From: Alphaproteobacteria bacterium
GTDB taxonomy: Bacteria; Pseudomonadota; Alphaproteobacteria; UBA8317
Direction of reading: 5' to 3'
NCBI GenBank assembly: GCA_038131935.1
Contig: JAYPQH010000035.1
Coordinates: 1 to 51,997 of the forward strand
DNA length: 51,997 nt
How positions within the stretch are numbered: position 1 is the first letter of the stretch; every line of letters begins with the position of its first letter. Shown piece by piece: positions 1-51,997 of the stretch. A model generated the notes under the pieces. It was not told the DNA's origin, made no database searches, and saw only the letters and a program-made list of their open reading frames with translations. The position numbers and the translations under genes were made by a program.

Positions 1-3000
1 AGTTGACGCATTGGTTTTCAGCCGGCTGACGGGCAGGGGTGTTTTGTTTAATGGTAGTGATGAGCAGGTTGTTTTTAAAGGTGTAACCCTTGATCCTTGG
101 ACAGCGATATACAACGGCCAAGTTGTTGACCTTAGTACGTTACCCTTGAATGCGTTAGATCCTAGAGGTGGTGACTTTAGTGCTGATATTGACATTATTT
201 TAACCTCTAAGGACGATTATTTTAATCTTACGGGTTATGGTGATGACATTGAGTTTCATTGGAGTGCAGGTGATGATGTACTTGATGGCAACTTCAACAA
301 CACGGAGTTATATCTACGTAAATTAAATGAAGGTTTAACGCTTGACCTTACAAGCACGAGTGAGACGCTGGGGTTTTGGGTTGCTACAGAGTCTGGCACG
401 ATAACTGTAAATATTGATTCCAATGAACGTTTTTTGATTGAAGGTACCTCTGGTGATGATGTCATCACAGGTCGGGATTATGTATTTGAGCAGATACAAG
501 TAAATGGTGGTTCAGATACGGTTTCTGGTGGTATTGGAGACGACTTTTTCCGTTTGCGTGATTTGACCGCGCAGATGCGGATAACAGATTATGAATATAA
601 CGAGTCTATCTGTTTAAACACCCAACTCCATTTAGTGGTGATGATATCAGCATTGTTTACAATGCGGATTCAGAACAGACAGAAGTTTATCTTACTAAAG
701 CTGGGTGCTGCACTTGGTGTGGATGTCAGCCGTCCAACAATCATTCTTGATGGTGAATTCACAAGCTGTTACACAGCCAAGGTGAAGTTGGTTGGGGAAA
801 TTGGTCAAGCTTGAGCTTTTTGAAACCTAATGATTTTTCAAGTTGGTTAGAGGAAGCTTTGAAGCGTCCTGTTCTTGCGGAAGATTTGGCAACTGCTGTT
901 CATACAAGTAATTTAAAAATTAACTTTAATGACTTTGCTTTGCCGACGGGTGACGTGGGTGTTTTGTTTAATGGTAGTGATGAGCAGGTTGTTTTTAAAG
1001 GTGTAACCCTTGATCCTTGGACAGCGATATACAACGGCCAAGTTGTTGACCTTTAGTACGTTACCCTTGAATGCGTTAGATCCTAGAGGTGGTGACTTTA
1101 GTGCTGATATTGACATTATTTTAACCTCTAAGGACGATTATTTTAATCTTACGGGTTATGGTGATGACATTGAGGTTTTCATTGAGTGCAGGTGATGATG
1201 TACTTGATGGCACTTCAACAACACGGAGTTATATCTACGTAAATTAAATGAAGGTTTAACGCTTGACCTTACAAGCACGAGTGACGCTGGGGGTTTTGTG
1301 GTTGCCACAGAGTCTGGTACGATAACTGTAAATATTGATTCCAATGAACGTTTTTTGATTGAAGGTACCTCTGGTGATGATGTCATCACAGGTCGGGATT
1401 ATGTATTTGAGCAGATACAAGTAAATGGTGGTTCAGATACGGTTTCTGGTGGTATTGGAGACGACTTTTTCCGTTTGCGTGATTTGACCGCGCAGATGCG
1501 GATAACAGATTATGAATATAACGAGTCTATCTATTTAAACACCCCAACTCCATTTAGTGGTGATGATATCAGCATTGTTTACAATGCGGATTCAGAACAG
1601 ACAGAAGTTTATCTTACACAAGCTGCGGGTGCTGCACTTGGTGTGGATGTCAGCCGTCCAACAATCATTCTTGATGGTGAATTCACACAAGCTGTTATTA
1701 GCCAAGAGTGAAGTTGGTTGGAAATTGGTCAAGCTTGAGCTTTTGAAACCTAATGATTTTCAAGTTGGTTAGAGGAAGCTTTTGAAGCGTCCTGTTCTTT
1801 GCGGAAGATTTGGCAACTGCTGTTCATACAAGTAATTTAAAAATTAACTTTAATGACTTTGCTTTGCCGACGGGTGACGTGGGTGTTTTGTTTAATGGTA
1901 GTGATGAGCAGGTTGTTTTTAAAGGTGTAACCCTTGATCCTTGGACAGCGATATACAACGGCCAAGTTGTTGACCTTAGTACGTTACCCTTGAATGCGTT
2001 AGATCCTAGAGGTGGTGACTTTAGTACTGATATTGACATTATTTTAACCTCTAAGGACGATTATTTTAATCTTACGGGTTATGGTGATGACATTGAGTTT
2101 CATTGGAGTGCAGGTGATGATGTACTTGATGGCAACTTCAACAACACGGAGTTATATCTACGTAAATTAAATGAAGGTTTAACGCTTGACCTTACAAGCA
2201 CGAGTGACGCTGGGGGTTTTGTGGTTGCCACAGAGTCTGGCACGATAACTGTAAATATTGATTCCAATGAACGTTTTTTGATTGAAGGTACCTCTGGTGA
2301 TGATGTCATCACAGGTCAGGATTATGTATTTGAGCAGATACAAGTAAATGGTGGTTCAGATACGGTTTCTGGTGGTATTGGAGACGACTTTTTCCGTTTG
2401 CGTGATTTGACCGCGCAGATGCGGATAACAGATTATGAATATAACGAGTCTATCTATTTAAACACCCCAACTCCATTTAGTGGTGACGATATCAGCATTG
2501 TTGTTTTACCCAAATTGCGGATTCCACCTGCAGAACAGACAGAAGTTTATCTTACACAAGCTACGGGTGCTACACTTGGTGTGGATGTCAGCCGTCCAAC
2601 AATCATTCTTGATGGTGAATTCACACAAGCTGTTATTGGCCAAGGTGAAGTTGGTTGGGGAAATTGGTCAAGCTTGAGCTTTTTGAAACTATCAACCAAT
2701 CAGAATGAAGAAGATACAAACGAACAAGATCAGAATATGACAGAAAAGCCATTTCTTTATTTTCCATTGCACCAAATACAAACAAAGCAACTGTTGGTAG
2801 TCCAATTACAGAGTGCAACAAGTTATGATGATTGGAATATTGAAAACCTCTATTCGCGCAATGATGGTGAATATCTTGAGTTCAAGGATGTTATAGGTGA
2901 CGTTTATCCAAATAGTATTTATGCGGGGCGAAGCTCTGCTTTGCTGACTATTGAGGAGGGCGAAGTCTTTGTTGGTAACTTAAATATTTTTGATACTGAC

Positions 3001-6000
3001 AATGACAAACTTGAAATCTCTGTCCAGTATGATGATCAACAACGTGAGGATACAATCACCGATAGCTCTATGTTCATTATGGATGGTGAACAAAATCTAT
3101 ATTTTAAAAAAGCTCCAGATTTTGAAAACCCCTTAGACAACAATGGACAATTGCAGGCTAATGAGGAATGGAGTGTTGCTGGGGATAATCTATATTTTCT
3201 CTCAGTGGTTGCTGAGAGCGGGGCTGTAAGAGACGGTCATTATTTATTAACTATACTAGACCGTGATGAAGAAGAAATTGAATCCTGGAAAAATTGCACT
3301 AGTTCTTGATCATATCTTTCTTTGATCTCGCGGAAGAAACAGCTATTAAAGTCTGATTTGGGACGTATGCCTACGATGACCAACAAAACGTTGATTATAC
3401 CTATTCTTTTGCGTCAGGAAATGACAGTGCAATATTTGCAATTGATGCGGAAACGGGCGAGCTTAGTCTCTCGAAAAGTCGAGTGAATGAACAAGCTACG
3501 GCTTTACAATTCAAGGGGATTGCTGCAACTAGATGTTGGTGGTTCCGTTGGCGTTCTGGCATTGATGTGAATGTTACAAGTAGTTTACAGTGCGTATTGT
3601 CAGAGACAACAATGATAATTCTTTTGTTTGGCACCCAAAAATAAAGATGAATTTTTTGAGCTACCTGAATAGCGCTGATGACCCTGATTATCCATATGAC
3701 AGTGGATATTATGCACGTTCACTTAACATATCCAAAGGCGAGAACTCTATACTTGTTACTTACCAAGGCGAAAGAGAAATAGAAGGTGGGCAACTTGGTG
3801 CTGTTTTGGCTCAACTTTATGATTCCTCTGGGGAACGGTTAGGGGGTGAGTACTTAATTAGTGATGTATTAGATCAAGGTCATTCTCAGGCATCAGCCTA
3901 TCTTGGTGACGACTTGTATTTGGTAACATGGTCCACCAACAGCCCAAACGAAGGCTCATTGCCTGAATGGGAAAATTTCGCTGCACTTGGCAAAATTATA
4001 AATGCAGCTACAGGTGAAACAGGAGCTACATTTATCATCAAAGATGCGATATCATTAATGATAAGACCTATGACATATCAATAGACGATTGAAGTAATAT
4101 ATTCGCGTCATGGCATGAAGGTGACTCATCTTAGAGAATCAGCGACTACAGCAGAACAGGACTGGGTACCTGTTCAAACAGGAAATCTGCGTGGGGTAAT
4201 TAATGAATCACTAACAACGGAAGAGGATTTAATTTATTTTACCGATGACGTTTACGTTGAGCCAGCAAATAACGCCCCGAAATTGAGTCCACACAGTTAT
4301 CTTGGATCAGAAAGTTTAGATTTTGATTTTAATGTTGAATCTCAACTTATAAAATGGTCTTGGGCTTAGTACTGGCAGCACAGGCGAAACTTGGTTTTAT
4401 TATGATCAAAAATTACGACTACCAGACACAAAATGATGCATTTACATTTTACCAGTAAATATTCCTGAGAAGTGGGATCCCCGCCATTCCCCATTCGTGA
4501 AAACGAATTTGTTTTGTTACAATCGGAGAGGGTAATGTTTATGCTGTCGAGAATATGTCGAGGTTATAGACTCTCTGATGGTGATAGTAGATCTGGGCTT
4601 GATTATCAGGCATGGCAACATGCAGAAACGCTGAGCATAAGAGATGATATTCAGCAAAATAGCTTGATATTCCAGGCTTTTGCGGAAGATGCAGATGAAG
4701 ACCCTTTGATATATTCAATATCAGGTGTGAATGCAGGCCTTTTATCAGTAGAGGCAACCACAGGGAAAATATTTCTAAATGATGTTTCAAGTTTGAAGTC
4801 GTTGAATGCATTAGAGTTCAGTATATCTGCATCAGATGGTACTTTAACAACAACTGAAGATGTATTCATTAAAGTCACTGAACCAAATGAAATTGATGAG
4901 GAACCTGACCCAATTAACAGTGCGCCCATCGTTTCGACTGATCTTTTGTTTTTCTCAGTCGATGCAGGAGCTAATATATCAGGCGCAATAAACGCATCAG
5001 ATCCAGACGAGATGCGCGTTATTGTTTAGTGTTGCAACGGCCCCCAAAAAGGGAACAGCTACTGTGACATCTGAGGGCGTTTTTACATATACTCCTAATG
5101 TAGACACAGACGGTGGCGACGGCTTCACGATTCAAGTTTCTGATGGAAGTTTAGCAGTAACAAAAGATGTTTTTGTTGCAGTTAACCCAACAGACGATAA
5201 TAATCAAAATAATGAAGACAAAAACAGTGCACCCATCGTGAGCACGGACATACTCTCCTATTCAACAACGCCAGAAGAGCCAATTTTAGACTCTATAACT
5301 GCTGTTGATCCGGATGGTGACGAGCTTTTTTACACAATAATCGTAGACCCATCTCAGGGAACGGTTGATATCACATCAGATGGCAGTTTTACATATACCC
5401 CTCAAGTTAATGCTGAAGGAATAGACAACTTCACGATAAACATTTCAGATGGTGATCTGTCTGTAAGTAAAGAGGTTGTGGTTAATGTTTTACCTGATAC
5501 TGACATTGAGGATAGAGATGATGTTGATGGGGCTATCACTTTAGATTTTTCCGAACTCGATAATGGGCACATACTCTTGAACATGTATGTGGACGCAACA
5601 TCAAAAGTAGAATCTTTAGATTTTACACTGGACTGGAATATTCTCGATGTTGATTACGTAAGCTCGAAATTTATACCAGGCTGGACCTTTTAGATAATAG
5701 CAATGAGGCAGGTAGCCGAATTTTTAGTGGTTACAGTTTGAATGGTTTGAAGGGGACATCTTCCGAATTGATCGGCCAAATAACTCTTGAGCCAAGTGCT
5801 GATCTTGATAATACAAAGATTGTGATCAGTAACATTCTTATTAACGACGATGATGGATCTGATACGGTTGATACTCTTAATTTCGCAACAGGGCATAGTG
5901 TTTCAGGTGATGTCAGTCATTGGAATGGCTTACTTCCTCTAGATGGCATCGTCACATTAGCTGGTGTTGACGCAGAATCTAAAAATGATCTTATTCAATT

Positions 6001-6804
6001 TCGTGATTTTGAATTGTTGGCAGATGGCACCGCAACGGTTGAGTTGTGGGCAAATATTCTTGATGGTTCAGCTGGCAGCATAGATTTTGGAATTAGACAT
6101 TCTTCAAGTTTAGCGCTTAAAGAGTATTCACTCGGATCGTCCTTTGATGAATGGGAAACGCTTATTACCAATAACGAAACTTTGGGAGAGTTACGAATAT
6201 CAGCATTATCGTTAGATTTAACAGAAGCAAATTATATTCGTAATGAGAAACTTTTGGGAAATTTCCACTTTGATATTTTAAATGATGAGGATCATACATG
6301 ATTACCCAATTTGGTGGGGATGTAGGTGGTGTAAGCGCTGATGAAAGTGACCTTTATGTACAAACAGTTACAACGGAAGGAGGTAATTATTCATTTAAAG
6401 ATATTCCAGATGGTTCGTACCAAATACATGTAAGCAAGGATACAATTGATCTTCCTAGGGGAGCTATAAAGGCATCGGATGCATTAGCTGCTCTTAAAAT
6501 CGGGGTAGGTGTCACGCAAGATGCAACGCCACATCAATTGATAGCAGCAGATGTCAATCAAAATGGAAAAGTAAATTCTGCCGATGCCCTTGCGATTCTA
6601 AAAATTGCTGTTGGCCATCAGGATGCTGTGGAGAATAAATTTGTTTTCATAGACCAAGCAGCAGACCTACAAGATCTAACTGCTAGAAAAGTCAATTATC
6701 AAACCGGAATTACGTTGGAAACACTTGAGTCTGAGCTTTATGGGCAAGATTTTATTGGCATATTGCTGGGAGATGTTAATGGAAATTATGTGGACTTCGT
6801 ATAA
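1..6804 (+). CDS. Giant extracellular RTX/cadherin-type surface protein (5' end outside window; multiple apparent sequencing frameshifts). Order: ~307-aa repeats, cadherin/Big-type domains, two cohesin-like domains, C-terminal dockerin-like module
   Basis: Consecutive acidic + strand ORF fragments (11-814, 811-1056, 1298-1711, 1810-3309, 3590-4084, 4115-4369, 4472-5029, 5022-5693, 5738-6301, 6298-6804) join across 1-2 nt indels, e.g. GWTF|LDNSNEAGSRIFSGYSLNG at ~5690. RTX-like motifs GTSGDDVITG and GGSDTVSGGIGDDFF. Cadherin-like motifs APDFENPLD, FAIDAETGELSL (~3436-3470), AEDADEDPLIYSISG, NSAPIVSTD x2 and DPDGDELFY. C-terminus has AADVNQNGKVNSADALAILKIAVG...LLGDVNGNY. It could be more than one gene. 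Confidence 0.7.
41..2689 (+). repeat. Three near-identical tandem coding repeats with a ~920-924 bp period (~307 aa)
   Basis: GTTTTGTTTAATGGTAGTGATGAGCAGG recurs at 41, 961 and 1885. Copies differ mostly by small indels. The third copy diverges after ...AGCTTTTTGAAAC at ~2689. Confidence 0.95.
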
Positions 6805-6818
6805 AAAGGGAATGTTTC

Positions 6819-8465
6819 ATGGCACTTAATACGATGAATATAAATGACATTACCTCAGAGACTTCACCATTATCCTTGAGGAATATAGTTATTGTTGACG
6901 ATGTTCTGACGGTTGAATTGTGGGTTAATCCCGATGGACAATCGTTGGAGAGTTTTGACTTTTACGATGTTACATTTGATGCGGGTATAGCGACGTTAGA
7001 TAATGTTGATGAGCTCTTGTATCAGGTATGGTACCTTAACCTCTAAGCGGCAGTTGTTGACGATGTTCTGACGATGTTGATGTTTGATAGATCCCGATGG
7101 ACAATCGTTGGAGAGTTTTGACTTTTACGATGTTACATTTGATGCGGGTATAGCGACGTTAGATAATGTTGAAGCTCTTGTATCAGGTTGGACAGTAACG
7201 GATTCTCAAGCGACAGCTGGTAATGTGAACATAGGTGGGTATAGTCTTGATCCTATTACGTCGGAGACAAGTTTTCTTAAGTTAACATTTACACTCATTG
7301 ATAAGACAAAAGATCTTGTTTTAAATTTTGATGATGTAGACACAGAACTAACCGTCAATGATGGCGTTTTAATAGAGGGGATTGCGAACCAAACCCTTTA
7401 CCAAGCTGATACCAATGTTGAGGATACGTCTTGGCTAATTTTGGAACCACAGAAAGCGACAGCAGACGAACTTATTTTGGATGTTCGCATTGATGGGGCA
7501 AAACTTGCTGAATTGGTGCCTGATCTTGATGCTGTTTCAGCACTTGCATTTGCGTTGGATTATGACTCACTAGATGAGTTTGAAGCTTTAGCAGGTAGTG
7601 ATGATATTGCATCCTTCTCAACGAAGGGTACGTCAGATCACCTTAATGGTAGCAATACGTTAACCAAACATTAAACGACGCCTTAGGTGATGTATTCCAA
7701 GTCTTTCAAGCACCTATAGATACCTCAACATTAGGTGCATCGGATACCTTCGGTTTTGTAAATTTTGTCAAAACACCTGCTGTTGACTTAGCTGATCTTC
7801 TTGCCAGCACGGATGCATTTGGGGCCTCGTCCAATGATGGTAAGATTGGTGAGCTGGTCTTGAACCCAAAAGCTAATGGGCCTGTGGATATAAAAATTAC
7901 CAATATTTATATTGCAGAAGATCCTACCCCTATTTTGTCGGACCCTGATGGTGTCACCTATAGCTTTGAGGTAGGCGGACATAATGTTTTGGTAAATTAT
8001 TGGTCTGAAACATCCAATGCAGAGATGCCAGCTATTTCCAATCAAGAGTTTGTGTTCTCATCAGCCAACTCAACTGTGACAGCTACCACAGATGCTACAG
8101 GTGCTTTAGATGCGCAGGCTCTACTTTCGAGCACATATACAGCCGTAGGGACGAATACGTCGGCAGAGAGTGCGATATCTATATCTGATGTGATTGCGAC
8201 GTTGAAAGCTGCGGTAGGCATAACTGAGCTAACAAATTATCAGGAGCTAGCCGCAGATGTGAACCAAGATGATCAGGTGACGATTTCAGATGTGATCAGT
8301 GTTCTGAAAATAGCTGTTGGCATTGAAGAGGGTGGAACACTTATTTTGACAGACCAAGGTAATGATGAGTTTACCATCACCAGCAACACAACTGAATTGA
8401 CCGCTGTGGCATTGGGAGATGTTGATGGCTCTTGGGCAAACACTGCTGTTGCAGATATTTTGTGA
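6819..8465 (+). CDS. Surface protein with two cohesin-like domains and a C-terminal dockerin-like module (scaffoldin-like; frameshifted fragments joined)
   Basis: RBS AAGGGA precedes ATG 6819. Fragments 6819-7046, 7084-7674 and 7860-8465. Cohesin-like patterns: VELWVNPDGQSLESFDFYDVTFDAG...GWTV...GNVNIGGYSLDPITSETSFLKLTFT and LDVRID...VSALAFALDYD...KIGELVLNPK...IKITNI. C-terminus: ISISDVIATLKAAVG...AADVNQDDQVTISDVISVLKIAVG...LGDVDGSW. Confidence 0.65.
6928..7188 (+). repeat. Direct duplication of ~100 bp (period 163 bp) inside the first cohesin-like domain
   Basis: ATCCCGATGGACAATCG...GCTCTTGTATCAGGT occurs at 6928-7027 and 7091-7188, with a garbled spacer containing fragments of GTTGACGATGTTCTGACG. 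Confidence 0.9.
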
Positions 8466-17314: not shown

Positions 17315-18698
17315 ATGTCATCTCAAGAACATGATGCAACCCTTATTTTTGCGGATCATATTGCCAATCATCCTTATGAATCACTTCCAACGGAAGCCGT
17401 TCGTGCCGCCAAAATATTTCTTCTTGATAGCCATCGTGTTGGGGTGATGGGTACGAAAGCACCACATGTGCGTGCTTGGTTAGATGGTCTTGCTGATGGT
17501 TCTGGGGCGGGGCGTGGTCGGGTCTTGGCCATGTCGGATAGACTGCCAACCCCAGCGGCGGCGGCTGCAAATGCGTTTTTGATCCATAACTCAGAATATG
17601 ATTGCGTTCATGAGCAAGCCGTTCTCCATCCCATGGCGGTTCTTCTTGGTTCCCTGTTGCCAACAATTGATGAGCTAGGTCCTGATTTATTGATTGATGG
17701 TCGTACTTTGTTGCGCGCAATTATTCTTGGCGTTGATGTTGCCTGTCACATTGGCAGTGCTGTGAACACTGGGCTGAAGTTTTTTCGACCCGCAACGGCA
17801 GGTGGTTTTGGAGCGGTTGCTGCATTGGCAATTTTGCATCAATGCAGCAAAGAGCAACTTTTAGATGCTTGGGGCCTCTATTATGCACAGGCCAGCGGCA
17901 CCATGCAGGCACATAGAGAAGGTTTACCTCTTTTGGCAATGCAAGTAGGTTTTTGTGCCCGAAGTGCGGTAACAGCCATCCATTTGGCAAAACATAACAT
18001 TCCAGGGACCCGCAATACGCTCGAAGGGCCGTTTGGATATTTAAACCTCATGGAGGACGGTTATGATAAAAATCTGTTATGTGGTGAATTAGGAAAAATT
18101 TGGCGTATAACAGAGGTGGCACACAAACCATTCCCTAGTGGACGCGCCACACATGGTGTTGTTGATGGGCTGCGGCAAATGATGCAGGAGCACGAACTGC
18201 ATGGTGAAGATGTTGCCAAATTAGAGGTATCTGTTCCGCCTTTAACATACAGACTTGTTGGACGTCCCGTCCTTGAGGAAATGACCGTAAATTATGCCAG
18301 ACTTTGTGGTCGTTATTGCCTCGCAAGGGTGCTTAAAACAGGTCATCTTGGGCCACAAGATTTTGATCCACAGCTTATTCATGATCCTGATAATGTTCAC
18401 TCGGCGAAGCAAATTTCTATGCTCGAGGACAGGCAACCCTGATCCGAATGCCTTGAGCCCTGTAACATTAAAACTTACGCAAAAAGATGGACAAATATGG
18501 CATAAAACGGTTGATGTTATTTATGGAAATCCTGCTCATGCGATGTCCCAAGAGGCTCATACACAAAAATATTTAGACAATATTGGACTCGTTGGTACCC
18601 AGGTTCATCCAGAAGCTTCAACATTGGTAGATATGGTGCAGGCAATAGAAACCCAAGATGATTGTCGTGTCCTTTTGGATATATTGACCCCAGCATGA
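17315..18698 (+). CDS. MmgE/PrpD family protein (frameshift at ~18420-18440)
   Basis: Motifs HNSEYDCVHEQAVLHP, LEGPFGY and HKPFPSGRATHG. The C-terminal half (NPDPNALSP...YGNPAHAMS) continues in the frame of ORF 18294-18698, whose TGA overlaps the next ATG. Confidence 0.85.
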
Positions 18699-20065
18699 GC
18701 CGTTACTTTCAGCAGATGAGATCAGCGCCTGTGCAAGAGGATTACCCTCTTGCAGACAGGTTTCTGCAACGGTTTTCGACAATGTCCGTAGAGAGCTTAC
18801 GTGCCCTACAAGAACAGCGTTTTGCTCTCATCATGAAGCGTTGTTGGAACATTCCCTTTTATCAACGGCGCTGGCAAAAGGTGGGTTTGGAACCAGGTGA
18901 TATCAAAGGATTGGATGATATCGAAAAAATTCCTCCCTTTACCAAGCGTGATTTGCTGGAGAGCGTGGAAACCTATCCCCCTTTTGGGGACTTTCATGGG
19001 ATGGATGACATGAAAGATAAGTCCCGGGTTATTTTACAAACAACCTCAGGAACAACGGGAACGCCTCAGCCTATTTTGTGGGATGCAACGGATAGAGAAA
19101 TACAGAATATCTTGTTGGCCCGTGCCTACATCATGCAAGGCATGACAGATGATGATGTTGTACATTCTGTTTATGGGTTTGGAATGGTGAATGGCGGTCA
19201 CTACATTAGAGAGGCTGTTCTGCATCATACAGCTGCTCTTCTGTTACCTGCGGGTACAGGCGTGGAAACATCCTCCGTACGGCAAGTACAATTGATGAAG
19301 CAATTTGGTGCTACCATGTTGGTAGGATTCGGAGATTATTTGTTTCATTTGGCACGTGTTGCCCGTGAGCAAGGTCTTATACCTGGCCAAGATATTCCTC
19401 TGCGGATGATCTGTGGGCATATCAATCATGCCACACGACAAGAGCTTGAAGATCTTTGGGGGGGTGCAAAAGTATTTGATTGGTATGGCGTTGGGGATAC
19501 AGGTCTGCTTGCTGCAGAAGGTCCAGATAGAGATGGCCTTTATGTCATGGAGGATGCTCAATATGTTGAGGTTATAGACCCCACCACGTCAAAACAGCTG
19601 GCTGTAGGCGAAAAGGGGTGCGTTTGTGTTACCTCTTTATTCAAATCAACGATATACCCAATTGTCCGCTTCAATGTTCAAGACTTATCAACCCTTCACC
19701 CAAGAGATCCCAACGGGCATAACATTTTTCGCAAAATGGCGGGGTTTCAGGGGCGGCATGATGATATGGTCAAGTTACGGGGTGTAAATGTATTTCCATC
19801 CTCCATTGGTGCTTTTTTTGACCAATATTTTGGGCAAGAAAGTCAATTCGTATGCATTGTTACACGACAAAATGATCGGGATTCTATGGAAGTACTGGTA
19901 GAAATATCTGATGAGCAGCGCAATCATGAACATGTTCAAAAAGCCCTCACAGAACAGTTAGGGGTCTCGGTTCTCGTTTCCTTTGTTCCTCCTGGAGCAA
20001 CGGCAGAGCATACAGGTTTGATGGAACGACAAAAACCTCGCCGACTTATTGATCGCAGAGGTTAA
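18695..20065 (+). CDS. Phenylacetate--CoA ligase (PaaK)-like adenylate-forming enzyme
   Basis: Motifs TTSGTTGTP, DWYGVGDTG and GRHDDMVKLRGVNVFP. ATGA overlap with the upstream gene. Confidence 0.88.
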   Translation: MSRYFQQMRSAPVQEDYPLADRFLQRFSTMSVESLRALQEQRFALIMKRCWNIPFYQRRWQKVGLEPGDIKGLDDIEKIPPFTKRDLLESVETYPPFGDFHGMDDMKDKSRVILQTTSGTTGTPQPILWDATDREIQNILLARAYIMQGMTDDDVVHSVYGFGMVNGGHYIREAVLHHTAALLLPAGTGVETSSVRQVQLMKQFGATMLVGFGDYLFHLARVAREQGLIPGQDIPLRMICGHINHATRQELEDLWGGAKVFDWYGVGDTGLLAAEGPDRDGLYVMEDAQYVEVIDPTTSKQLAVGEKGCVCVTSLFKSTIYPIVRFNVQDLSTLHPRDPNGHNIFRKMAGFQGRHDDMVKLRGVNVFPSSIGAFFDQYFGQESQFVCIVTRQNDRDSMEVLVEISDEQRNHEHVQKALTEQLGVSVLVSFVPPGATAEHTGLMERQKPRRLIDRRG

Positions 20066-21423
20066 CGGTTATCATTTTGGCTTACCATCTGGGTGAGGTG
20101 ATTATTGATACTGTTGAGGGAGGTTGCGATAGGTAATGACAATAAGGAATTGAGAAGCATATCCACATTGGCTTGGTCAAAATCTTTTACGTTTCTTTTA
20201 AACTTTGCACATAAATCCTCTTCGCTCATGGGATTCTCAGGGTCACCTAAGGGTGTGTTGACATGAGCGGTCTCGACCACTTCCCTTGTTGTTGGTTGAT
20301 AGGCCATGACTGTTGTGGGCATGGCACCTGGAAAACGCCGGTTGAGATCATCATCGATGAGCACACGCATCTTATGTCTTAATGCTGCAATATCATCATC
20401 TTGACGGTTTTTTGCATCATACCACCCAACGTCAGGTTCTCCCTTTAAAAGTGTATAGGCTACGGCATGCTGAAGGCTAAACCGTGCCTCATGGTCTGTT
20501 TGAGGCTCAGCGTTGTCACAGAACATTTGGGCTGCTTGGTAGGTGTGTATGTCATAAAAATACTGTTCGGGTTGAGGTACTTTATTCTTCAATTCTAGTG
20601 CGGCTTGAATAGCTGCATGGCTATGGCGGCAGGCGGGCCAGGGTTTGAATGAAACCTCAAATATTTTAAATTGTTGTTCTTGTTGCATGGATGGCAATTG
20701 TTTGGCCGCCTGGGGATATAAGGTTGCAAAAAAGCCCAAGTCACCCTCTAAAATGCTATGTGGCCCGGGCATGTCAACTTGGGAGAGCCAAGCGCTGTGA
20801 ACCGCGGCGCGTGCAGCATGTCCGCAGACCAATGATTTTGATACGGTTGGTTCAAGACGACATTGCCAAAGCCCAGAGGCTTGCATCCCAGCATGACCCA
20901 ATGCGTCGCATTGTTGTTGCTCGTTAAGACCAAAGAGCAAAGCGGATGCGAAACAACCACCAAAAATACCGCATGTACTGGAATTATACCATGAAGAGTA
21001 ACCTTGTTTCGCGGCGCATTCTCCTATGATCAATGCTATTTCATATCCTCGTGTGATGGCTTTTAGTAATGCGTCGCCATCTGCATTGGTAAGTTGTGCG
21101 CTCACAAGTGCTGCAGGAATAATAATATCTCCTGCATGCAAAATGGATGCATTATGAACATCATCCATTTCCAAGATATTGCCCAAACAACCCATAACGA
21201 AGGCTGCGTCGAGATAATGCCGTTTGGTACCAGAGATATCGATACAAGAACCATGCCCAAGGTTTGCCCAAGGTAGATCTATGATGCGCCGACCCTCTGT
21301 TGTTGTTGAAGCCGCAAGTGCAATCCCAAACCAATCTAAAACATGCCATTTGGCCCGATCAATGGTTTCTGAATTGATGGGTCGACGGGCATGTTTGGCC
21401 AAATCAGTGCTCCAAGTTCGCAT
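20062..21423 (-). CDS. MmgE/PrpD family protein
   Basis: Motifs GNILEMDDVH...LHAG, ILEGDLGF, FKPWPACRHSH and GDPENPMS. Start MRTWST follows a GGAG RBS. Confidence 0.9.
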   Translation of the reverse strand: MRTWSTDLAKHARRPINSETIDRAKWHVLDWFGIALAASTTTEGRRIIDLPWANLGHGSCIDISGTKRHYLDAAFVMGCLGNILEMDDVHNASILHAGDIIIPAALVSAQLTNADGDALLKAITRGYEIALIIGECAAKQGYSSWYNSSTCGIFGGCFASALLFGLNEQQQCDALGHAGMQASGLWQCRLEPTVSKSLVCGHAARAAVHSAWLSQVDMPGPHSILEGDLGFFATLYPQAAKQLPSMQQEQQFKIFEVSFKPWPACRHSHAAIQAALELKNKVPQPEQYFYDIHTYQAAQMFCDNAEPQTDHEARFSLQHAVAYTLLKGEPDVGWYDAKNRQDDDIAALRHKMRVLIDDDLNRRFPGAMPTTVMAYQPTTREVVETAHVNTPLGDPENPMSEEDLCAKFKRNVKDFDQANVDMLLNSLLSLPIATSLNSINNHLTQMVSQNDNR

Positions 21424-21575
21424 GATGAAAACTCCAAAATTCAACATCCACAGGAAAAACATCACAAATCTAAAAGCATTTGGATAGTGAAGATTATGAA
21501 AAGTAAATGTTTCAATCTTGTGTTCAACAGTGGAAAGCGCTTTGTTAACGTAAACTTTTCCCGTCGGAGAAAAAA

Positions 21576-22436
21576 ATGACCACACAAAAAAATTTTCTAT
21601 GGCCCAATGGTTCGCGTGTTGCGGTATCGGTTGTTGTAAATATTGAGGAAGCCTCTGAAATGTCGGTGGCAAGAGGAGATAAGCGACCTGACCCTGTTGA
21701 TGAATTGGGGGTGGTGATCAAAGCGCCTGTAAGAAATTATGGCAATGAAAGTAATTATCTATATGGGCTACAAGTAGGGGCAGATCGCGTTTTTGGTCTC
21801 ATTGATCGTTACCAAATTCCCACAACAGTCACTGCTGCCGCGCAGAGTTTGGAGGCTTGCCCAGATTTGGCGCAGCGTTTGGGTCAGTCTCATCATGATG
21901 TCGCAGCCCATGGGTATCGTTGGATTCATCAATTTCACATGGATGAACAACAAGAGCGTGAATTCATTGCCAAAGCCACCGCGTCAATCACCCAAACAAC
22001 CGGTGTCAAACCTAAAGGATGGTTGTCGCGCTATATGCATACGGCAAAAACCCATGAAATTCTGGTAGAACAAGGTTACCTTTATCATATGGACAATTAT
22101 TCTTCAGAACATCCATTCAGGCAAAGATACCCAAAAGGTGATATCGTTGTTGTTCCTTACGCCTTAGATACCAACGACATGAAAATGTGGATTGACCCAG
22201 CCTATACACCAGATCAATGGGCAAAATATGTTTGTGATAGTCTTGATTGGATGCTTGAAGAAGAGGAACAGCCAGCCCTGTTGCTCTCTATTGGTGTCCA
22301 TTTGCGGATTGTGGGTCGCCCTGGACGGATGGCTGCATTCCGACGAATTTTAGACCATATCATGAGCAAGAAAAACATGGTTTGGTGTGCGACCCGACAT
22401 GATATCGCTCATGCCTGGTCAACAGCACATCTTTAA
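21576..22436 (+). CDS. Polysaccharide deacetylase family protein, PuuE allantoinase-like
   Basis: Motifs WPNGSRVAVSVVVNIEE, ESNYLYG, AHGYRW, PYALDTNDMK and IGVHLRIVGRPGR. Confidence 0.85.
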   Translation: MTTQKNFLWPNGSRVAVSVVVNIEEASEMSVARGDKRPDPVDELGVVIKAPVRNYGNESNYLYGLQVGADRVFGLIDRYQIPTTVTAAAQSLEACPDLAQRLGQSHHDVAAHGYRWIHQFHMDEQQEREFIAKATASITQTTGVKPKGWLSRYMHTAKTHEILVEQGYLYHMDNYSSEHPFRQRYPKGDIVVVPYALDTNDMKMWIDPAYTPDQWAKYVCDSLDWMLEEEEQPALLLSIGVHLRIVGRPGRMAAFRRILDHIMSKKNMVWCATRHDIAHAWSTAHL

Positions 22437-27440: not shown

Positions 27441-28325
27441 ATGTTCCATTCCATATTTTTGCTTCTGTTGTTGCCAATGGCGGCGTTTTGCCAAGACATA
27501 GTAGGGGTAAGACCGACCTTTACCGACCGTAATCTCACCATGCCACCCAATCATGAGAGCATTGTCTCACGCATGTGGATGCCTGGCGTAGACCAAGGTT
27601 ATATTCCACAAGGTGTCACCGTGGCTGAGGGAAACGTTATTGTGGCGTCTTACAATTCTGAAGGTGTTACGCCCAAATGCCGGATCTATCGCATGGAACC
27701 GGAGACCATGACCATCACGGGATATTTCGATCTTGGTCATTATTGTGGTCACGCAGGTGGGTTGGCTTATGCAGGTTTGGGTCGACTATTCATCTCAGAT
27801 ACTTGGCGGCTTTATGAAATTGATCTTACAAAGGCTTTCTCACAAACGCAGTCTGAAGAAATGCTTGTGCGTTCATATTCTCTCAAGTTTCCGCTTCGGG
27901 GTTCATTTTTGGCCTATCATGATGGCGAGCTATGGGTTGGTGCATACAAAAAATCTGGCCCTGGCGCCGTGCATGCGCTTCCCCTTCAAATACTTGAAAC
28001 CAAGGACTTACCCAGCGGCTTAGGGCTTGAGCATGTCCGTATGACCTTGGATATTGCAGCCAAATCGCAAGGGGCAACATTTGATCATGAGGGCTATTTG
28101 TGGCTCAGCCAATCAAACAGCCAATTTGGGCGCATACAGAAAGTTAACCCAAGAAATGGTCATGTTTTGGCTGAATATCCTGTTGTTGCAGGTATCGAGG
28201 ATTTGGGTTTTGATCATCGTGGTTTGTTGTGGTCGGCAGGTGAGGCTGGAACAAGAAAATGGCACAATTGGCCAACATTTTTTCCTTTAATTTTCGCTAT
28301 AGACCCTAAAATCTTAAAGCCATGA
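27441..28325 (+). CDS. Exported hypothetical protein, probable beta-propeller
   Basis: N-terminal signal-peptide-like MFHSIFLLLLLPMAAFC. Repeated blade-like motifs PQGVTV, HAGGLAY, SQGATFD and IEDLGFD. RBS GAGGG. Confidence 0.7.
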   Translation: MFHSIFLLLLLPMAAFCQDIVGVRPTFTDRNLTMPPNHESIVSRMWMPGVDQGYIPQGVTVAEGNVIVASYNSEGVTPKCRIYRMEPETMTITGYFDLGHYCGHAGGLAYAGLGRLFISDTWRLYEIDLTKAFSQTQSEEMLVRSYSLKFPLRGSFLAYHDGELWVGAYKKSGPGAVHALPLQILETKDLPSGLGLEHVRMTLDIAAKSQGATFDHEGYLWLSQSNSQFGRIQKVNPRNGHVLAEYPVVAGIEDLGFDHRGLLWSAGEAGTRKWHNWPTFFPLIFAIDPKILKP

Positions 28326-28388
28326 ATATATCACGTCGAATATTTTATTTTGTATCATCTCATATGCATTGAATAAGGTTGGTGTCTT

Positions 28389-29585
28389 ATGGATTTGTTT
28401 TCATTGCTTTATGCAACATCCTTCGCGTTAAGCCTTCTTTCGTGGAGTGCTTATATGTCAAGTTATTCCATCGATCTCATGGACATCACAGTTCCTCCAA
28501 GTTTTGAGCAATCGGGTTATACAAGCACAATGTTAAATGATTTCGTGCTCGACGAAATTCAGCATATCTACCGCTCCGCGCAGCTTGATAGAGAGACGTT
28601 AGAAGAGCAAAGTTTACTTCAAGCTAAGGCCGAAGATGTTCTGTCAACCTCAGGTCTGAAAAGTGTATTTGAGTTGGGTGCCTTGGCCATGGGTGTGAAC
28701 CCTATACAAGTTAAGATCAGTTTGATTGATGAAAGTAAGGAGCGCATGAAGGTTGTGGTGCGGCTTCATGATGGCGGACGTAAGAAAATGGTTGTGCGGT
28801 TTGTCGAGAACCCTAAACCTGCAGATGTTGTGCGTATAGCAGCTTATGAAACAATCAATTTGGTGAGTCCAACAACGATATTATGGTACCATTTTGTGGA
28901 GGAATTGTATGCTCTTCCCCCAAAGCCATCAGGTGACCATTTTGTGCAAACGCTCAAGATTATTGAAGAAGGCCTTAAAGATTGTGAACGGCGTTTTCCT
29001 GACATAAGTGAGCGCTGTAGCCCTGATATGGTGGCACAATTTGAGATGGCTCATGTCAATGTGCTCGGTATTGTGGGGCGCACAGAGGAAGCATTACAGA
29101 CATTAAATGCGTTTATTGAAGATCATCGCTTCAAAGAGGCATCATCCGACGTTCGGTCTATGTCATTTGCGATAAAGGCCTTCGTTCTCATGCATGCTCA
29201 ACATTTGGAAGAAGCTCAAGAATCCCTATCACAAGCAACCCAAATATCACCAAATATTGGAAAAACATTTGCTGAGTTTGGATCAGGACATTTTGACAGA
29301 GGAGGCTTTGAACATGCCAACCAGCGTTTTGGTATGGCCATGAAATTGCATTATAGTGATAAGAAAATGTTGCAACAATATGCTTATGCGTTGAAGCAAA
29401 TTGAAGGTCAAACCTACACCGATCGCATGTTAGAAACATGGTATGATCTGGGGTTCACCAACAAAAATCATGTTCGTGATGCTGCCTGTTACGTAAAAAG
29501 TAGATTATGCCACCAAAACTTGACGTCTCAACTGTCTTGGTGGGACGTATGGTATTGGATGCCTGTATATGGTGATGGACATTAA
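28389..29585 (+). CDS. Membrane-anchored TPR-like hypothetical protein
   Basis: Hydrophobic N-terminus and helical TPR-like segments (GRTEEALQTL, HLEEAQESLSQATQISP, GGFEHANQRFGMAMKL). Confidence 0.6.
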   Translation: MDLFSLLYATSFALSLLSWSAYMSSYSIDLMDITVPPSFEQSGYTSTMLNDFVLDEIQHIYRSAQLDRETLEEQSLLQAKAEDVLSTSGLKSVFELGALAMGVNPIQVKISLIDESKERMKVVVRLHDGGRKKMVVRFVENPKPADVVRIAAYETINLVSPTTILWYHFVEELYALPPKPSGDHFVQTLKIIEEGLKDCERRFPDISERCSPDMVAQFEMAHVNVLGIVGRTEEALQTLNAFIEDHRFKEASSDVRSMSFAIKAFVLMHAQHLEEAQESLSQATQISPNIGKTFAEFGSGHFDRGGFEHANQRFGMAMKLHYSDKKMLQQYAYALKQIEGQTYTDRMLETWYDLGFTNKNHVRDAACYVKSRLCHQNLTSQLSWWDVWYWMPVYGDGH

Positions 29586-29659: not shown

Positions 29660-32600
29660 TTAGGCAATTTCTGGAAGCCATGACCCATCTACGTCGCCTA
29701 AGATCACCAGCTCTAAGCTTATATCATCAATCAAAAAGAATTCATCTTTATAGCCGTCCTCAGTTTTTGCCAGCACATGGCTTTCGATGTTGCTGTCGAT
29801 ACCTACGGCCTTTTTGAGTATCGATATCACATCACTCACACCAATATTTTGGTCTTGGTCGACATCTGCTGCGATTTGAGCCCAAGCATCTAGTTCCGTG
29901 ATCCCCACGGCATGCTTGAGGGTCGCAATCACATCACTCACAGAAATGGCTTTGCTGGCATTGATATCACTGTCTAATGTAACAGAGGTTTTGCTACCCT
30001 TGCTTAGCGCGGAAAAATCCAATGCTGAGGAGGTAGACGTTATGTTTGTAGATTCTATGCTGGCTTCATAAAATATGGATGGTTTCTCGCCTGTAATATC
30101 GATCGCCGCTAATGATTGGGTATCAAGTGAACCACCAAATTCACTATGGCCCCAAGTGACCACATTTTTGCCAGGCTCTATATATTCAACCTTGAAGTTA
30201 AAATCTGCGACAGCCTCTTGGGAGCCAGCGTAGGAGATTGGTGCATGGCCTTCCCATTTTTCGGGACTTACCAAAGCTGCAAATGCTGCGTCTGAAGCAA
30301 AATATCTTCTACATCAGTGGTTTCAGACATCACTGATATGATATCCGTATTGTAGTCATCCCCAAAATCACCCCAAGTGATGAGCTTGGCATCACTCATC
30401 AAAAGGGCAAAGCCACGGTCTGTTGCCATGGCATCTACAATGGTCGCGTCACTACCCTTCAAAAGTCCTTTTACCGATAGTGAGTCTGCTCCAAAGCCAT
30501 CAACACCCCAGCTTGTGAGCATTCCATCCTCATGAATGGCAACAAACGCCCCACGGTTTGCAACAATATCAACCACCTTGTTTGACCCATCAAGTCTATC
30601 GGCGAGATGCTGGCTCTCACCACCGAATACAGGGTCCCCCCATGTGAGAACTGAACCATCTTCGCAAAGGGCTGCAAACGCACCTGAGGTGCTGAAAATT
30701 TCTGTTATTGTAGAGGTGGATAATTTATGGGCAATTGCGCTCGAATCCCCGCCTTTTTGGGCATTGCCCCATGTCAAGATTTCACCATTTTCATACAACG
30801 CTGCAAACGCTGATTCTGTTGCAGAAATCGCAATAACTGTCGCATCTGTAGCTTGCAGTGCGTCGGCAACTGAACTTGCGTCCCCTCCATTTTCTGCATT
30901 ACCCCAAGTGGCTATCGTTCCATCTTCAAAAAGTGCGGCGAAGGCCAATGTGGTTGCAAAAATATCTACTGCAGCGACATCCATTTGCTGAAGATTGCTA
31001 TCAAATACGCCACCATCTGTGCTGCTTCCCCAGGCTCTTATCACCCCATCCGTGTCAATTGCTGCAAAAGCGGATGTGTTGGAGGTGATTTTTTCGATCA
31101 CAATGTCGTCCAAATGAGGGTTAGAACCTCCGCGTTCTGGGTCTCCCCATGTGATCACTGTTCCGTTCTCAAGCAAGGCTGCAAATGCAAATTTGCTTGA
31201 TGCAATATCAACAACGGCTATGGAGCCGTCTAAGTTATTTGCAGCGTCACCTAAAAAACCGCCTAAATTGGGGTCTCCCCAAGCCACCACAGACCCATCA
31301 GCCAAAATGGCTGCGAACGCTTGGTTGTTCGAAACAATTTTTTGCACATCTTTGAGTGCTTCTTTTACGTCACTGACATCGCCACCAGCAGTCTTATTTC
31401 CCCAAGCCACCACTGAGCCATCTGTGGTGATGGCTGCGAACGCTGATGCGTTACGATATGTAGAGAAGTCATGGCCAGGATAAGCATGGGATAACTCATT
31501 GTTGGTAGGTAAGCTTTGCTGCAATTTTGACGTATTTGTTGGCCCGGAGGTGCTCATTTCTTGTCCCGACGCACCCTCAACCATAAGCAGATTGTTTAAA
31601 GACGGTGATTGTATCCGTGCTTGAGGGCTATTGGGTGCCTCAGCGATGTAGGCATATGACTCATCGATCATCTGGCTACCTAACAATGCATCATAAAAGC
31701 TATTGTAAATGGCAAACCAAAAATATTCTTCTGGATCGCTAAACCAGTCATCAATAATGGGAATGGAAATGGTTTTCTCAATATCGCCAATATCGAAGGT
31801 CACAGATTGGGGAACGCCTGCCCATTCCACATCAAAAAGGCCAGCGCTTCCAAAATCTATATTGTACCAAATGGTTTCGGACGTGGTTGAAGCACTTCTT
31901 TGAATGATAAATTCAGCATGGTCGCCCTCATAGGCATAAAAATTTGCTTCAGGGCCTGAAACAGAGAATTGCCCCGTTTCATTGGTATTCTTTTGATCAA
32001 GAATTGTGATCGTTGCGTAAGATGTATAATCAATGCCTTCAATTGCAGAGGCTTCCGTTTCATAAAGGTCGATAAAGAAGTATTCATCTGACTCGGTAAG
32101 GTCATCATTCCATACAGCCACGGAAAGTTGGATCTCTGTCTCACCATCTTGGAAGTTCAAAGCTGTGGGACTTAGGGCTTCATAATCTTCATCTTCCGTA
32201 GCGGTTGTGCTCGATGTCCGGGCAAAGATCGTTGACGCACCGGAGGATGAATTTCTGGTAATCGTCACAATGGCATCATCACCCTCGGTGACAGTAATCT
32301 CATCTGTAATCACATAGCTATAGCTGGTTGGCTCATAGGTATCGATATTGTCTTGGACAATTTCAATGGTTGCGTAATCAAACCAAGTACCTGTCTGTGC
32401 GTCAGCCTTGGTTTGGTAAAGATCAAGCCAAAATATTTCACCATCGTCGTCTATGCCATCTTGTAAAATGTCAATAGATGCGGTTGCAATCGCAGAACCA
32501 TCTTGGAAGCTAATCGCTTGCTGGGACAAGGCCACAAAATCTTCATCACCTGTATCCAGATGTGAGGTGGATACATATATCGTAGACTCTCCTTCGGTTG

Positions 32601-35600: not shown

Positions 35601-36690
35601 ATGTGTCATCATTCGCATTGTAGCCAAGAATTTCATGTGCGTGCCCTCCAACAATGGTAAGGGCGCCGCTGTCATCATAAATTGAATCCCATGAGCCTAG
35701 CCAACCAATTCCGCCGGCATCTAAGGCATCAATGACACCTTGTTTGAATTCACCAGCAAAACTGTAACTAACGAAGGAGTCGCGATTGGTGCCATCATTC
35801 ATACTCCATTGGCCATAATAGTCATATTCAAGGCCAGTGAAGAATTTGAGAGGAGAGGCCCATCCCCCTTCAACAGCTTGATAGCTTACCTCACCTGTCC
35901 AGTCGTCACGACCAGCAATATTGTATTGACCATTCATTTGGACAAAGGCTTTTTCAATTAAGGATGGCCACAATTCGCCTGAAAGGCTCTTGCTGTTATT
36001 TCCTGTAAACGCGATGCGGTTCCAACTTGTCACGGGCAATGAAGTGCTCACTGTTGTGAACATGATTTCATCATCTATGAAAAAACGCACGCCATAGGTG
36101 TCGTTACCATTGTCGATGAATAAACTCTCTATAGCACCATCTTTTGCAGCTAGGGCGCCAAATGAAGCCACAACATAACAGGTTCCTGCTTGTCCTTGTG
36201 AAACGTCCGTTTCAGACGTGCCAGACACAAATAATGGGCCGGTTGCTTGGGCATAATCAAAGGATGATTGGGCTGCTTTACCCGTGGCCGTGTCTCCACC
36301 AGCAATGGGCATGGGTAGGTCCGTTCCCAAAAACCATTCCCCAATCAACCTGGTTGCGCTTTGTTCACTCATATTGGCTTGAGCGTTGCCAACAGAAACG
36401 GCTTGGTCCGCGGTCTTTGTACCACCCCACCAGAGCTGGTTTGCAGGGTTTGAATAGATGACAGCCTGGGTGATGTAGCGTACATAATCGCTCTCGAAGA
36501 GGTTTTCATCAAAGGCTGTGGAAAACATATTCTTGAGGTCTGTAATTTCTATCTCAGAAAAGCCATTACTCGCCGTTTGTGTGAGAATGTTGAGGGCGTC
36601 ATTATAGTCTAGAATATTATCGCTGAGGGCTTCGTTGAGATGCAGGGTGATTTGCTCGCTTTGGATGTTATCAAACAGTTCACTTGTCAT
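29660..36690 (-). CDS. Giant (~2340 aa) extracellular protein: calpain-type (C2) cysteine protease, 11 Calx-beta repeats, ~10 RCC1-like repeats, C-terminal dockerin-like module (one frameshift at ~30300)
   Basis: Catalytic triad motifs QGQAGTCY, GGHAHEILG and IRNPWG, plus LWPSLIEKAF. Eleven xxEG..T.TI.R...D...EG.E.F.L.L repeats. Repeats of AFAA...DGSV..WG....GG. Adding one base to the A4 run at 30299-30302 restores DIFASDAAFAALVSPEKWEG and joins ORF 29660-30274, which ends ISVSDVIATLKHAVG...AADVDQDQNIGVSDVISILKKAVG...LGDVDGSW. Confidence 0.88.
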
Positions 36691-36943
36691 CCTTTGATGT
36701 CCTTCAAACGGCAACGTGATACGTTGTTTTGGAATTACCACTACGAAGAAGGTATCATGGTTTCAAAAAATGTTACAGCTTTTGGTTTCAAGCCCAAAAG
36801 CTGCATTTAGGGTTAATTTTTTTCCGATGATTGAGCATATGCGATGGTTGGCACCATGATTTTTACAACATCGGATTTCATCTCCGATATGGCAACCAAA
36901 CATGTCATAGGTAAAAAGGAACTGTTTTTTAGTGGGAAACATC

Positions 36944-42786: not shown

Positions 42787-42795
42787 ATAATCACT

Positions 42796-43971: not shown

Positions 43972-44002
43972 ATTAATCTACTCAAATTGAATGATTTCAA
44001 AT

Positions 44003-45337: not shown

Positions 45338-45360
45338 TATCACGACATAGTTAATTTTCA

Positions 45361-45369
45361 ATATAAAAA
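45361..45369 (-). promoter_or_regulatory. Putative archaeal-type TATA box of the radical SAM gene
   Basis: TTTTTATAT on the minus strand, ending 24 nt upstream of ATG 45337, which fits leaderless-transcript spacing. The region is AT-rich, so a chance match is possible. Confidence 0.4.
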
Positions 45370-45404
45370 TATCTGATTATGAATAGGCACATCTTAAAAT
45401 TAAT

Positions 45405-45866: not shown

Positions 45867-45873
45867 TTCTATA

Positions 45874-48258: not shown

Positions 48259-48266
48259 CTACTCAC

Positions 48267-51959: not shown

Positions 51960-51997
51960 TTTATAATTAGAAAATTATTGTTTAAAATATGAAGATT

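Follow-up and report, generated by a model that had tools for sequence, protein, structure and literature searches.

The window analysed here comprises 51,997 nucleotides (positions 1 to 51,997 of contig JAYPQH010000035.1) and contains three genes for large proteins, designated A (1-6804, plus strand), B (6819-8465, plus strand) and C (29660-36741, minus strand). The products of all three end in the same dockerin-like module, hereafter the tail, and those of A and B carry further domains upstream of it, D1 to D4, several of which resemble cohesins. All pieces of A, B and C are acidic, with pI values of 4.05-4.41. Their features are collected in Table 1. Related proteins are denoted by P numbers, where P0006 is the window's own open reading frame.

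Table 1. Positions of the modules and other features of genes A, B and C
Gene	Feature	Position	Strand	Remarks
A	RTX-like Ca-binding units, upstream part	1..3309	+	three tandem repeats, several frames
A	cadherin / Big_9 / Cadherin_5 domains and a domain common to P0016, middle part	3357..5525	+	broken by frameshifts and in-frame stops
A	D1, cohesin-like	5526..5893	+	one-base frameshift in a T run at about 5687-5693
A	probable first half of a CarboxypepD_reg-like beta-sandwich that would hold an inserted D2	5894..5968	+	conserved block in the family consensus
A	D2, predicted cohesin fold	5969..6360	+	last strands lie past a frameshift at about 6289-6301
A	putative second half of the CarboxypepD_reg-like sandwich	6343..6441	+	sub-threshold Pfam match
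A	dockerin-like module, C-terminal extension and stop	6463..6804	+	Dockerin_1 match; stop at 6802-6804
B	start of B and D3, cohesin-like	6819..7410	+	ATG at 6819, 14 nt past the A stop; D3 broken by a tandem duplication
B	D4, fold not assigned to a family	7411..7982	+	frameshift at about 7653-7674
B	contiguous beta-rich linker domain before the dockerin-like module	7983..8171	+	88-96% identical in P0001-P0004
B	dockerin-like module, extension and stop	8172..8465	+	tail alignment
C	main frame, 2157 aa	30268..36741	-	calpain-type domain at about 35578-36234, eight Calx-beta, RCC1 repeats
C	tail, 204 residues, in another frame	29660..30274	-	one frameshift at about 30300; dockerin-like module 29663-29959

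The dockerin-like tail and the cohesin-like domains

The three tails (6463-6801 and 8172-8462 on the plus strand, 29663-29959 on the minus strand) can be aligned over 96 consensus columns, 28 of which are invariant. Each module combines a small beta-rich domain with a dockerin-like pair of EF-hand helices and a conserved extension at the C-terminus. Relative to the tail of A, that of B is 41% identical and that of C 33%; the C tail is also 46% identical, over 134 residues (E = 1e-20), to the B-type tail of P0002. The Pfam profile Dockerin_1 (PF00404, cut-off 22.9 bits) recognizes the A tail at 25.5 bits, scores the B tail below the cut-off at 16.0 bits and has no match on C, while the relatives P0007 (22.4 bits) and P0016 (21.9 bits) fall just short of it. 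A profile made from the three tails yielded 15 matches at E ≤ 10 among the sequences in the PDB, and 12 of these 15 were dockerins or cellulosomal chains with a dockerin. In each of the three tails the second calcium loop is canonical, carrying an acidic or amide side chain at loop positions 1, 3, 5 and 12. A conserved extension follows the dockerin-like helices, here and family-wide, and a low-confidence model of P0002 places three helices at residues 1099-1144. We regard the tail as a divergent dockerin-type EF-hand module, an assignment that is borderline by sequence alone. That A, B and C share a C-terminal module of this kind had been put forward in the original prediction, and the alignment, its 28 invariant positions and the Dockerin_1 match of A bear this out.

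To characterize the upstream domains, a structural model of the in-frame piece 5654-6298 was created with AlphaFold2 from a 40-row alignment. D2, which in this piece lacks its last strands, is modelled with pLDDT values of 77-94 (residues 111-210 of the piece). In a Foldseek search with D2 against the PDB, cohesins make up 35 of the 39 rows listed, including all 28 listed rows up to rank 33. The best match is 2xdh, a non-cellulosomal cohesin of Archaeoglobus fulgidus (E = 1.1e-3), and the target-normalised TM values of the first ten rows are 0.42-0.56. The D2-equivalent domain in the Atlas model of P0007 has TM values of 0.75-0.80 to ten out of ten cluster models, and seven of the ten list PF00963, the Pfam cohesin family. 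The fold predicted for D2 is therefore that of a cohesin jelly-roll; a generic immunoglobulin-like or carbohydrate-binding module (CBM) fold, which the original prediction had named as the outcome that would speak against it, was not what the search with D2 returned.

Sequence comparisons link two of the remaining domains to D2. A profile of the D2 family matches D3 in P0002 (residues 713-818, E = 7.9e-13) as well as the D3 pieces of the window (5.7e-8 and 2.4e-5), and, weakly, the two halves of the window's D1 (0.021 and 0.7). Profile-profile comparison with the D2 family gives 96.6% for D3 (E = 5.6e-10), 91.8% for D1 of close homologues (E = 7.5e-7) and 0.5% for D4. The window's own D1 is 40-55% identical to D1 of P0016 and P0007. 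Because D1 and D3 are homologous to D2, they too are predicted to adopt the cohesin fold, by homology only; A would thus have two such domains (D1 and D2) and B one (D3). Of the four cohesin-like domains originally proposed, D1, D2 and D3 hold up as members of one family, by profile and by profile-profile comparison, but D4 does not. The coordinates proposed for them were roughly right, although all but most of D2 is split over several frames and D2 extends to about 6360. A feature search with D4 provides a lead only, in that 20 of 30 matches lie in sets with 13-18% PF00963 members (score 0.90). A comparison of the D1/D2 piece with the sequences of solved structures gave no match at E ≤ 10. 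PF00963 itself is passed by a distant relative, P0005, at 26.8 bits (cut-off 24.1). The AlphaFold2 model of the whole of P0002 has a mean pLDDT of 40, and the best Foldseek match to it in the PDB has an E-value of 0.18, so that nothing significant was found.

The family consensus, together with sub-threshold Pfam matches, suggests that the cohesin-like domain next to the tail is inserted in a small sandwich resembling CarboxypepD_reg. The putative first half of this sandwich in A, at 5894-5968, has no Pfam match and is modelled with low confidence; in the piece at 6343-6441, residues 19-51 score 22.8 bits with CarboxypepD_reg and 21.7 bits with SdrD_B, both below cut-off. The linker of B at 7983-8171 aligns with the sandwich of P0005, which itself has a sub-threshold match to CarboxypepD_reg. 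Overall, we consider it very probable that the modules discussed here are true cohesin-fold and dockerin-type domains.

Integrity of the three genes and their surroundings

Between positions 1 and 8465 the plus strand contains no clean genes; open frames follow one another in a chain, and the register shifts repeatedly. The repeats of A at 1-3309 start 921 and 923 bp apart, and their cores are 97-100% identical. HemolysinCabind scores on the window pieces are 16.8-19.6 bits, below the Pfam cut-off of 23, and RTX repeats above the cut-off are present in the relatives P0003 (45.6 bits) and P0007 (32 bits). The middle of A matches Big_9 (77.2 bits) and Cadherin_5 (59.2 bits), and residues 34-263 of P0016 align with 3584-4264 at 72% identity, spanning the in-frame stop at 4082-4084. 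Reading A from 3357 to 6804 requires at least four frame changes, and further in-frame stops are met from 4367 onward; additional frame breaks lie within 1-3309. The closest intact relative of the C-terminal 430 residues is P0007, annotated by NCBI as a tandem-95 repeat protein from an Alphaproteobacteria metagenome-assembled genome (MAG), with 54-64% identity overall and 64% for the tail alone. A had been described as an RTX/cadherin adhesin; the RTX-like and cadherin/Big_9 repeats of this description are supported, by sub-threshold Pfam matches combined with solid ones to Big_9 and Cadherin_5.

An imperfect 163-bp tandem duplication (6892-7188) breaks up D3 in B, and an 82-nt core is 100% identical between its two copies. 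Identity to P0002, the intact relative of B (1192 residues), is 71-76% ahead of the duplication junction and 94-96% beyond it (6843-7100 region). This jump, together with the identical core, suggests that two paralogous or strain variants have recombined or been joined into a chimera. P0002 also has about 710 additional N-terminal residues before the region equivalent to B. The make-up of B is the least secure of the three genes, and its proposed role as an adaptor of two cohesins and a dockerin is doubtful in view of the frame-breaking duplication, the identity jump and the longer N-terminal part of P0002.

The main frame of C is matched by Peptidase_C2 (49.2 bits, cut-off 23.8), Calx-beta (147.9 bits) and RCC1_2 (90.4 bits). 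The region of the active-site Cys aligns with calpain-3 at E = 2.8e-7; the His and Asn motifs are found only in a second stretch, which is non-significant by itself. The calpain-type protease domain anticipated on C is supported by the profile score and by the alignment of the Cys region. The two frames beside the 3' end of C, at 27441-29585, are intact, with lengths of 294 and 398 residues, and neither has a Pfam or NCBIfam match.

Taken at face value, such breaks could mean that the three genes are defunct relics or products of misassembly in this genome and form no working assembly, a reading that is compatible with any of those discussed below and to which we assign a substantial probability, if less than an even one. 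The frame changes and stops throughout A speak for it, as do the duplication in B with its frameshift near 7660 and the single frameshift in C; the identity jump between B and P0002 is as expected of a chimeric join, and most of the other genes in the window match their profiles end to end. On the other hand, some of the breaks fall at error-prone sites, that is, in homopolymer runs or between the near-identical 921-bp repeats, and intact relatives exist (P0002, P0004, P0003, P0007 and P0016). A metabolic gene elsewhere in the window may also be affected, in which case some errors would be generic. This gene, of the MmgE/PrpD family (17315-18698), ends after position 100 of a C-terminal profile of 173 positions. 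A frame overlapping it, 18294-18695, matches the C-terminus of the paralogue encoded at 20065-21672 weakly (E = 0.084) but in register. There may thus be a frameshift near 18440, which bears on the question of insertion and deletion errors in the assembly. Because of this possible shift, and because of the breaks in homopolymers and repeats, sequencing error is a live alternative to decay.

The remaining genes of the window are ordinary metabolic ones, and the majority of those with a curated family align with it over its whole length. The formate-tetrahydrofolate ligase is 99-100% identical to proteins labelled 'MAG: Alphaproteobacteria bacterium' at NCBI, with the next relatives, among them Candidatus Puniceispirillaceae, at 66-67%. 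The host is therefore an alphaproteobacterium, as had been guessed from the sequence. No tRNA genes were found in the window. Domain-profile scans of A, B, C and the neighbouring genes detected no glycoside hydrolase, CBM or SLH domain, in agreement with the earlier statement that no carbohydrate-active enzyme is attached here.

At 42000-51997 the G+C content falls to 0.25-0.31, from about 0.45. Genes for sugar modification fill this region, with products that comprise a PseC-like aminotransferase, a radical SAM enzyme of the B12-binding type, FkbM and other methyltransferases, a sulfotransferase, a FemAB-like protein and a protein for polysaccharide synthesis. It looks like a surface-glycan island of foreign composition.

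The wider family, export and the role of the modules

To place A, B and C in context, we searched for relatives of their C-terminal regions. The tail of B recurs at 91-94% identity on four other proteins that differ in their N-terminal parts, namely P0002 (1192 residues), the FG-GAP/cadherin protein P0004 (1988 residues), the RTX protein P0003 (417 residues) and the fragment P0001. A search with the C-terminal region of A returned 87 relatives, whose other domains include Big_5, DUF4347, FG-GAP/VCBS, Calx-beta, RCC1, lectin, serralysin, M10 and subtilase. According to precomputed Pfam annotation, PF00353 (RTX) is present in 18 of these 87 proteins, PF00404 in 15 and PF00963 in 4. When 98 proteins were scanned with profiles of our own, 51 had the tail and no detectable cohesin-like domain (48 with one tail, 3 with two), and 42 had both modules (35 with one cohesin-like domain, 7 with two or three). 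One protein had a cohesin-like domain only and four had neither module. Those with the tail alone include proteases, adhesins and repeat proteins. The tail lies at the C-terminus, or within about 44 residues of it, in 79 of the 93 proteins that have it. A search of representative sequences with the D1/D2 piece gave 10 proteins at E ≤ 1e-3, four of which (P0009, P0011, P0012 and P0014) showed no family domain on re-scanning.

The family comprises members from Alphaproteobacteria, green sulfur bacteria and other taxa. In species-representative genomes, a scan with the tail alignment found 56 loci; none exceeds 48% identity, and that over a short segment, none is close to the window, and the scan yielded no intact orthologous locus. 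The tail was re-found in 45 of these 56 loci and the cohesin-like domain in nine, seven of them in Chlorobiaceae and two in one Burkholderiales MAG. Family genes often stand several in tandem. Tail-only and cohesin-bearing genes occur together within one genome in the window and in Chlorobaculum (loci L002, L003 and L010). Among cultured green sulfur bacteria, members are found in Prosthecochloris vibrioformis DSM 260 and Chlorobaculum sp. 24CR, beside type I secretion operons; locus L012 is of this kind.

Several of these loci have further features. A Gammaproteobacteria MAG (L001:2-10687) and a Porticoccaceae MAG (L006:1-10480) each contain a frame of more than 2800 residues with subtilase, PPC, P-domain, serralysin-C and RTX matches, and directly behind it a frame of some 660 residues with a dockerin-like tail at its end; a third tail-bearing frame, with TSP3 repeats, is present in L006. 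Family genes of Chlorobiaceae stand beside transposase genes (DDE_3, PDDEXK_2) at L008:2221-3282, L008:10984-12363, L005:13643-14599 and L018:10464-11345, and those of L008 are also next to a transporter of the ShlB/FhaC two-partner-secretion type. A sorting tail of the type IX secretion system was rejected as an explanation for the window, as Por_Secre_tail occurs only on distant relatives of Bacteroidota type.

By a crude test, a hydrophobic N-terminus is present in 2 of the 77 members beginning with Met, and B and C have none. At three of eight Chlorobiaceae loci the family genes have ABC, HlyD and OEP genes as neighbours; such neighbours are absent from loci L001, L006 and L017. From these neighbours and the scarcity of hydrophobic N-termini, type I secretion is the likely export route of the family. 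In P0003, residues 174-249 match the type I secretion C-terminal target domain TIGR03661 at 28.8 bits (cut-off 17.6); this match is internal, with the sandwich and the tail appended after it. Such a placement is unusual, in that this signal normally terminates a protein. Because the known signal precedes the tail here, the tail is not simply that signal.

The interpretation that we prefer is that A, B and C encode giant extracellular proteins, acidic and calcium-binding, of an uncultured alphaproteobacterium. Their export would not involve a Sec signal and would most likely proceed by type I secretion, after which their acidic EF-hand and RTX parts would fold on contact with extracellular calcium. 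Cohesin-fold domains on sister proteins would next receive the dockerin-like tails, so that proteins with a tail only, such as the calpain protein C, could be held at the cell surface on cohesin-bearing A or B. With this mechanism included in full, the interpretation comes close to, but does not quite reach, an even chance. Its central step, the putative binding in trans between cohesin-like domains and tails, we likewise hold to be a good possibility that stops short of an even one. Docking in trans is favoured because cohesin-like domains and tails are unequal in number, because many enzymes carry the tail only, and because one type of tail is found nearly identical on unrelated proteins. 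A prediction of the complex between D3+D4 of P0002 (residues 705-1032), two calcium ions and the P0002 tail (residues 1088-1192) gave no clear answer, with a score of 0.02, a mark of 0.32 and no controls, and speaks neither for nor against binding.

A number of observations weigh against this interpretation. All three genes are frame-broken as assembled, and the 52-kb window contains neither ABC/HlyD/OEP type I secretion genes nor a sortase anchor or other recognizable anchoring protein. The matches of the tail to solved dockerins are weak (E = 0.007-0.02, with 0.011 as the best for the three-tail profile), larger profiles bring no improvement, and in these searches a generic EF-hand protein reaches scores as high as those of dockerins, while cadherins also give weak matches. 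The first calcium loop of the tails is degenerate, most clearly in A, even if its first helix is conserved. PF00963 has no match on the window pieces or on P0002 at E ≤ 0.1, nor on P0007 at E ≤ 0.01. The Foldseek E-values of D2 are modest, none being at or below 1e-3 for the domain without its last strands. Neither profile nor profile-profile comparison links D4 to the D2 family, and Pfam has no match for it; because this link is missing, D4 is not confirmed as a cohesin. Lastly, the cohesin-like domain ends 23-35 residues ahead of the tail in 39 of the 42 proteins that have both modules, a spacing that fits an intramolecular unit equally well.

This last observation leads to an explanation in which no proteins are linked. 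That is, the cohesin-like domain, the sandwich and the tail would together form one intramolecular C-terminal unit, acting as a folding cap triggered by calcium, as a type I secretion signal, or as both. Besides the near-constant spacing, the apparent insertion of the cohesin-like domain in the sandwich agrees with such a unit, as do the position of the tail at or near the C-terminus, the conservation of the extension past the dockerin helices throughout the family, and the type I secretion genes that adjoin some of the Chlorobiaceae members. Type I secretion signals lie at the C-terminus. Yet 51 of the 98 proteins have a tail without a detectable cohesin-like domain, and in seven, additional cohesin-like domains are located at a distance from the tail, D1 and D3 of the window being such extras. 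Because the two modules differ in number, a purely cis pair is not expected, and the internal TIGR03661 domain of P0003, with its tail appended afterwards, speaks against the tail being simply the known signal. We view the intramolecular unit as unlikely, though deserving of serious attention.

It could also be that the tail is a retention module for some other ligand, for example an outer-membrane protein or a surface glycan, and that the cohesin-fold domains serve in spacing or adhesion. Consistent with this, tail-only proteins are the largest class, and by sequence alone the tail is indistinguishable from a generic pair of EF-hands. Of the ten Atlas neighbours of the D2-equivalent domain of P0007, six are secretin clusters of the outer membrane, drawn from Pseudomonadota, Acidobacteriota and Nitrospirota, and most of these bear a cohesin. 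Cohesins on secretins could be acceptors for the dockerin-like tails, and their existence makes acceptors outside the family conceivable. However, no candidate acceptor was found in the window, and the recurrence of cohesin-fold as well as dockerin-like modules within the same proteins and genomes would have to be a coincidence. On balance this explanation appears improbable.

Returning to docking between sister proteins, its most far-reaching form is a candidate Gram-negative counterpart of the cellulosome that does not act on carbohydrates, namely a self-assembling surface mesh of adhesins, proteases and repeat proteins, held together by cohesin-dockerin contacts, with type I secretion as its export route and calcium as its switch. 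Abundant uncultured Alphaproteobacteria would use it, as would green sulfur bacteria and other Gram-negatives. A and B, with their extra cohesin-fold domains, would be its branch points, and the calpain protein C, serralysins and subtilases its cargo. Such a mesh is unlikely on present evidence.

The family offers several handles, that is, a compact cohesin-sandwich-dockerin unit for which many sequences are available, proteases and adhesins with only a tail as possible cargo, and cultured members. If docking in trans is true, it would explain how Gram-negative bacteria retain giant secreted proteins and proteases at their surface, and it would provide new calcium-switched affinity pairs for protein engineering. 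If the modules pack in cis, they would be a novel type of cap at the C-terminus, for folding or for secretion. The value of this particular window is limited, because all three of its genes are broken.

Comparison with known cohesin-dockerin systems and RTX adhesins

A cellulosome proper was rejected, as there is no carbohydrate-active enzyme, CBM or anchor. The likeness to the cellulosomal type I and type II pairs of Clostridia (PDB 1ohz, 1anu and 2ccl) lies in the modules, namely the jelly-roll of D2 and the dockerin-type calcium loop and helix of the tail, and in the division of the family into tail-only cargo and proteins with both cohesin and tail. Unlike those pairs, the modules of the window lack a PF00963 match and have a degenerate first calcium loop, and the cargo consists of adhesin repeats and proteases rather than carbohydrate-active enzymes. 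The host, moreover, is Gram-negative, export is probably independent of Sec, and no CBM, SLH or sortase anchor is present.

Non-cellulosomal cohesin folds are also known from large secreted glycoside hydrolases of Clostridium perfringens (PDB 2jh2 and 2vo8), and both structures are among the Foldseek matches of D2. The cohesin-like modules of these enzymes are reported to bind dockerin-like partners. In contrast to the proteins described here, they are Sec-secreted glycosidases of a Gram-positive bacterium.

RTX adhesins of the LapA or ice-binding type are likewise giant and acidic, with calcium-binding repeats and no Sec signal, and they share with members of our family the association with ABC/HlyD/OEP genes. 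The C-terminus of LapA-type adhesins consists of an RTX block and a secretion signal, and their retention is N-terminal. Here, by contrast, the C-terminus is a cohesin/dockerin-like unit, and the RTX matches of the window are below cut-off.

The modules of A, B and C belong to a widespread and barely characterized, non-cellulosomal kind of cohesin and dockerin. A 2009 survey by Peer et al. reportedly found cohesin and dockerin modules outside cellulolytic organisms, often both in one protein and with no known function. To our knowledge, what non-cellulosomal modules do has been open since they were catalogued in 2009. Our literature search, mostly without full texts, found no account of the family in Alphaproteobacteria or of a calpain bearing a dockerin. 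Unexplained dockerin- and cohesin-like modules are noted in the genome paper on Saccharophagus degradans.

The closest parallel comes from Chlorobium chlorochromatii, for which AlphaFold 3 modelling led to the proposal of a pair formed by Cag_2037, an RTX protein whose cohesin is N-terminal, and Cag_2038, a BIg protein whose dockerin is C-terminal (bioRxiv 10.64898/2026.03.19.712371). The two systems have in common giant RTX or Ig-repeat proteins, a Gram-negative bacterium that is not cellulolytic and a link to type I secretion, and Chlorobiaceae also hold members of our family. They differ in that Cag_2037 and Cag_2038 carry the two modules on separate proteins, whereas most of our members with both modules have them in cis at the C-terminus. 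The alphaproteobacterial host and the calpain protein with a tail also set A, B and C apart from this pair.

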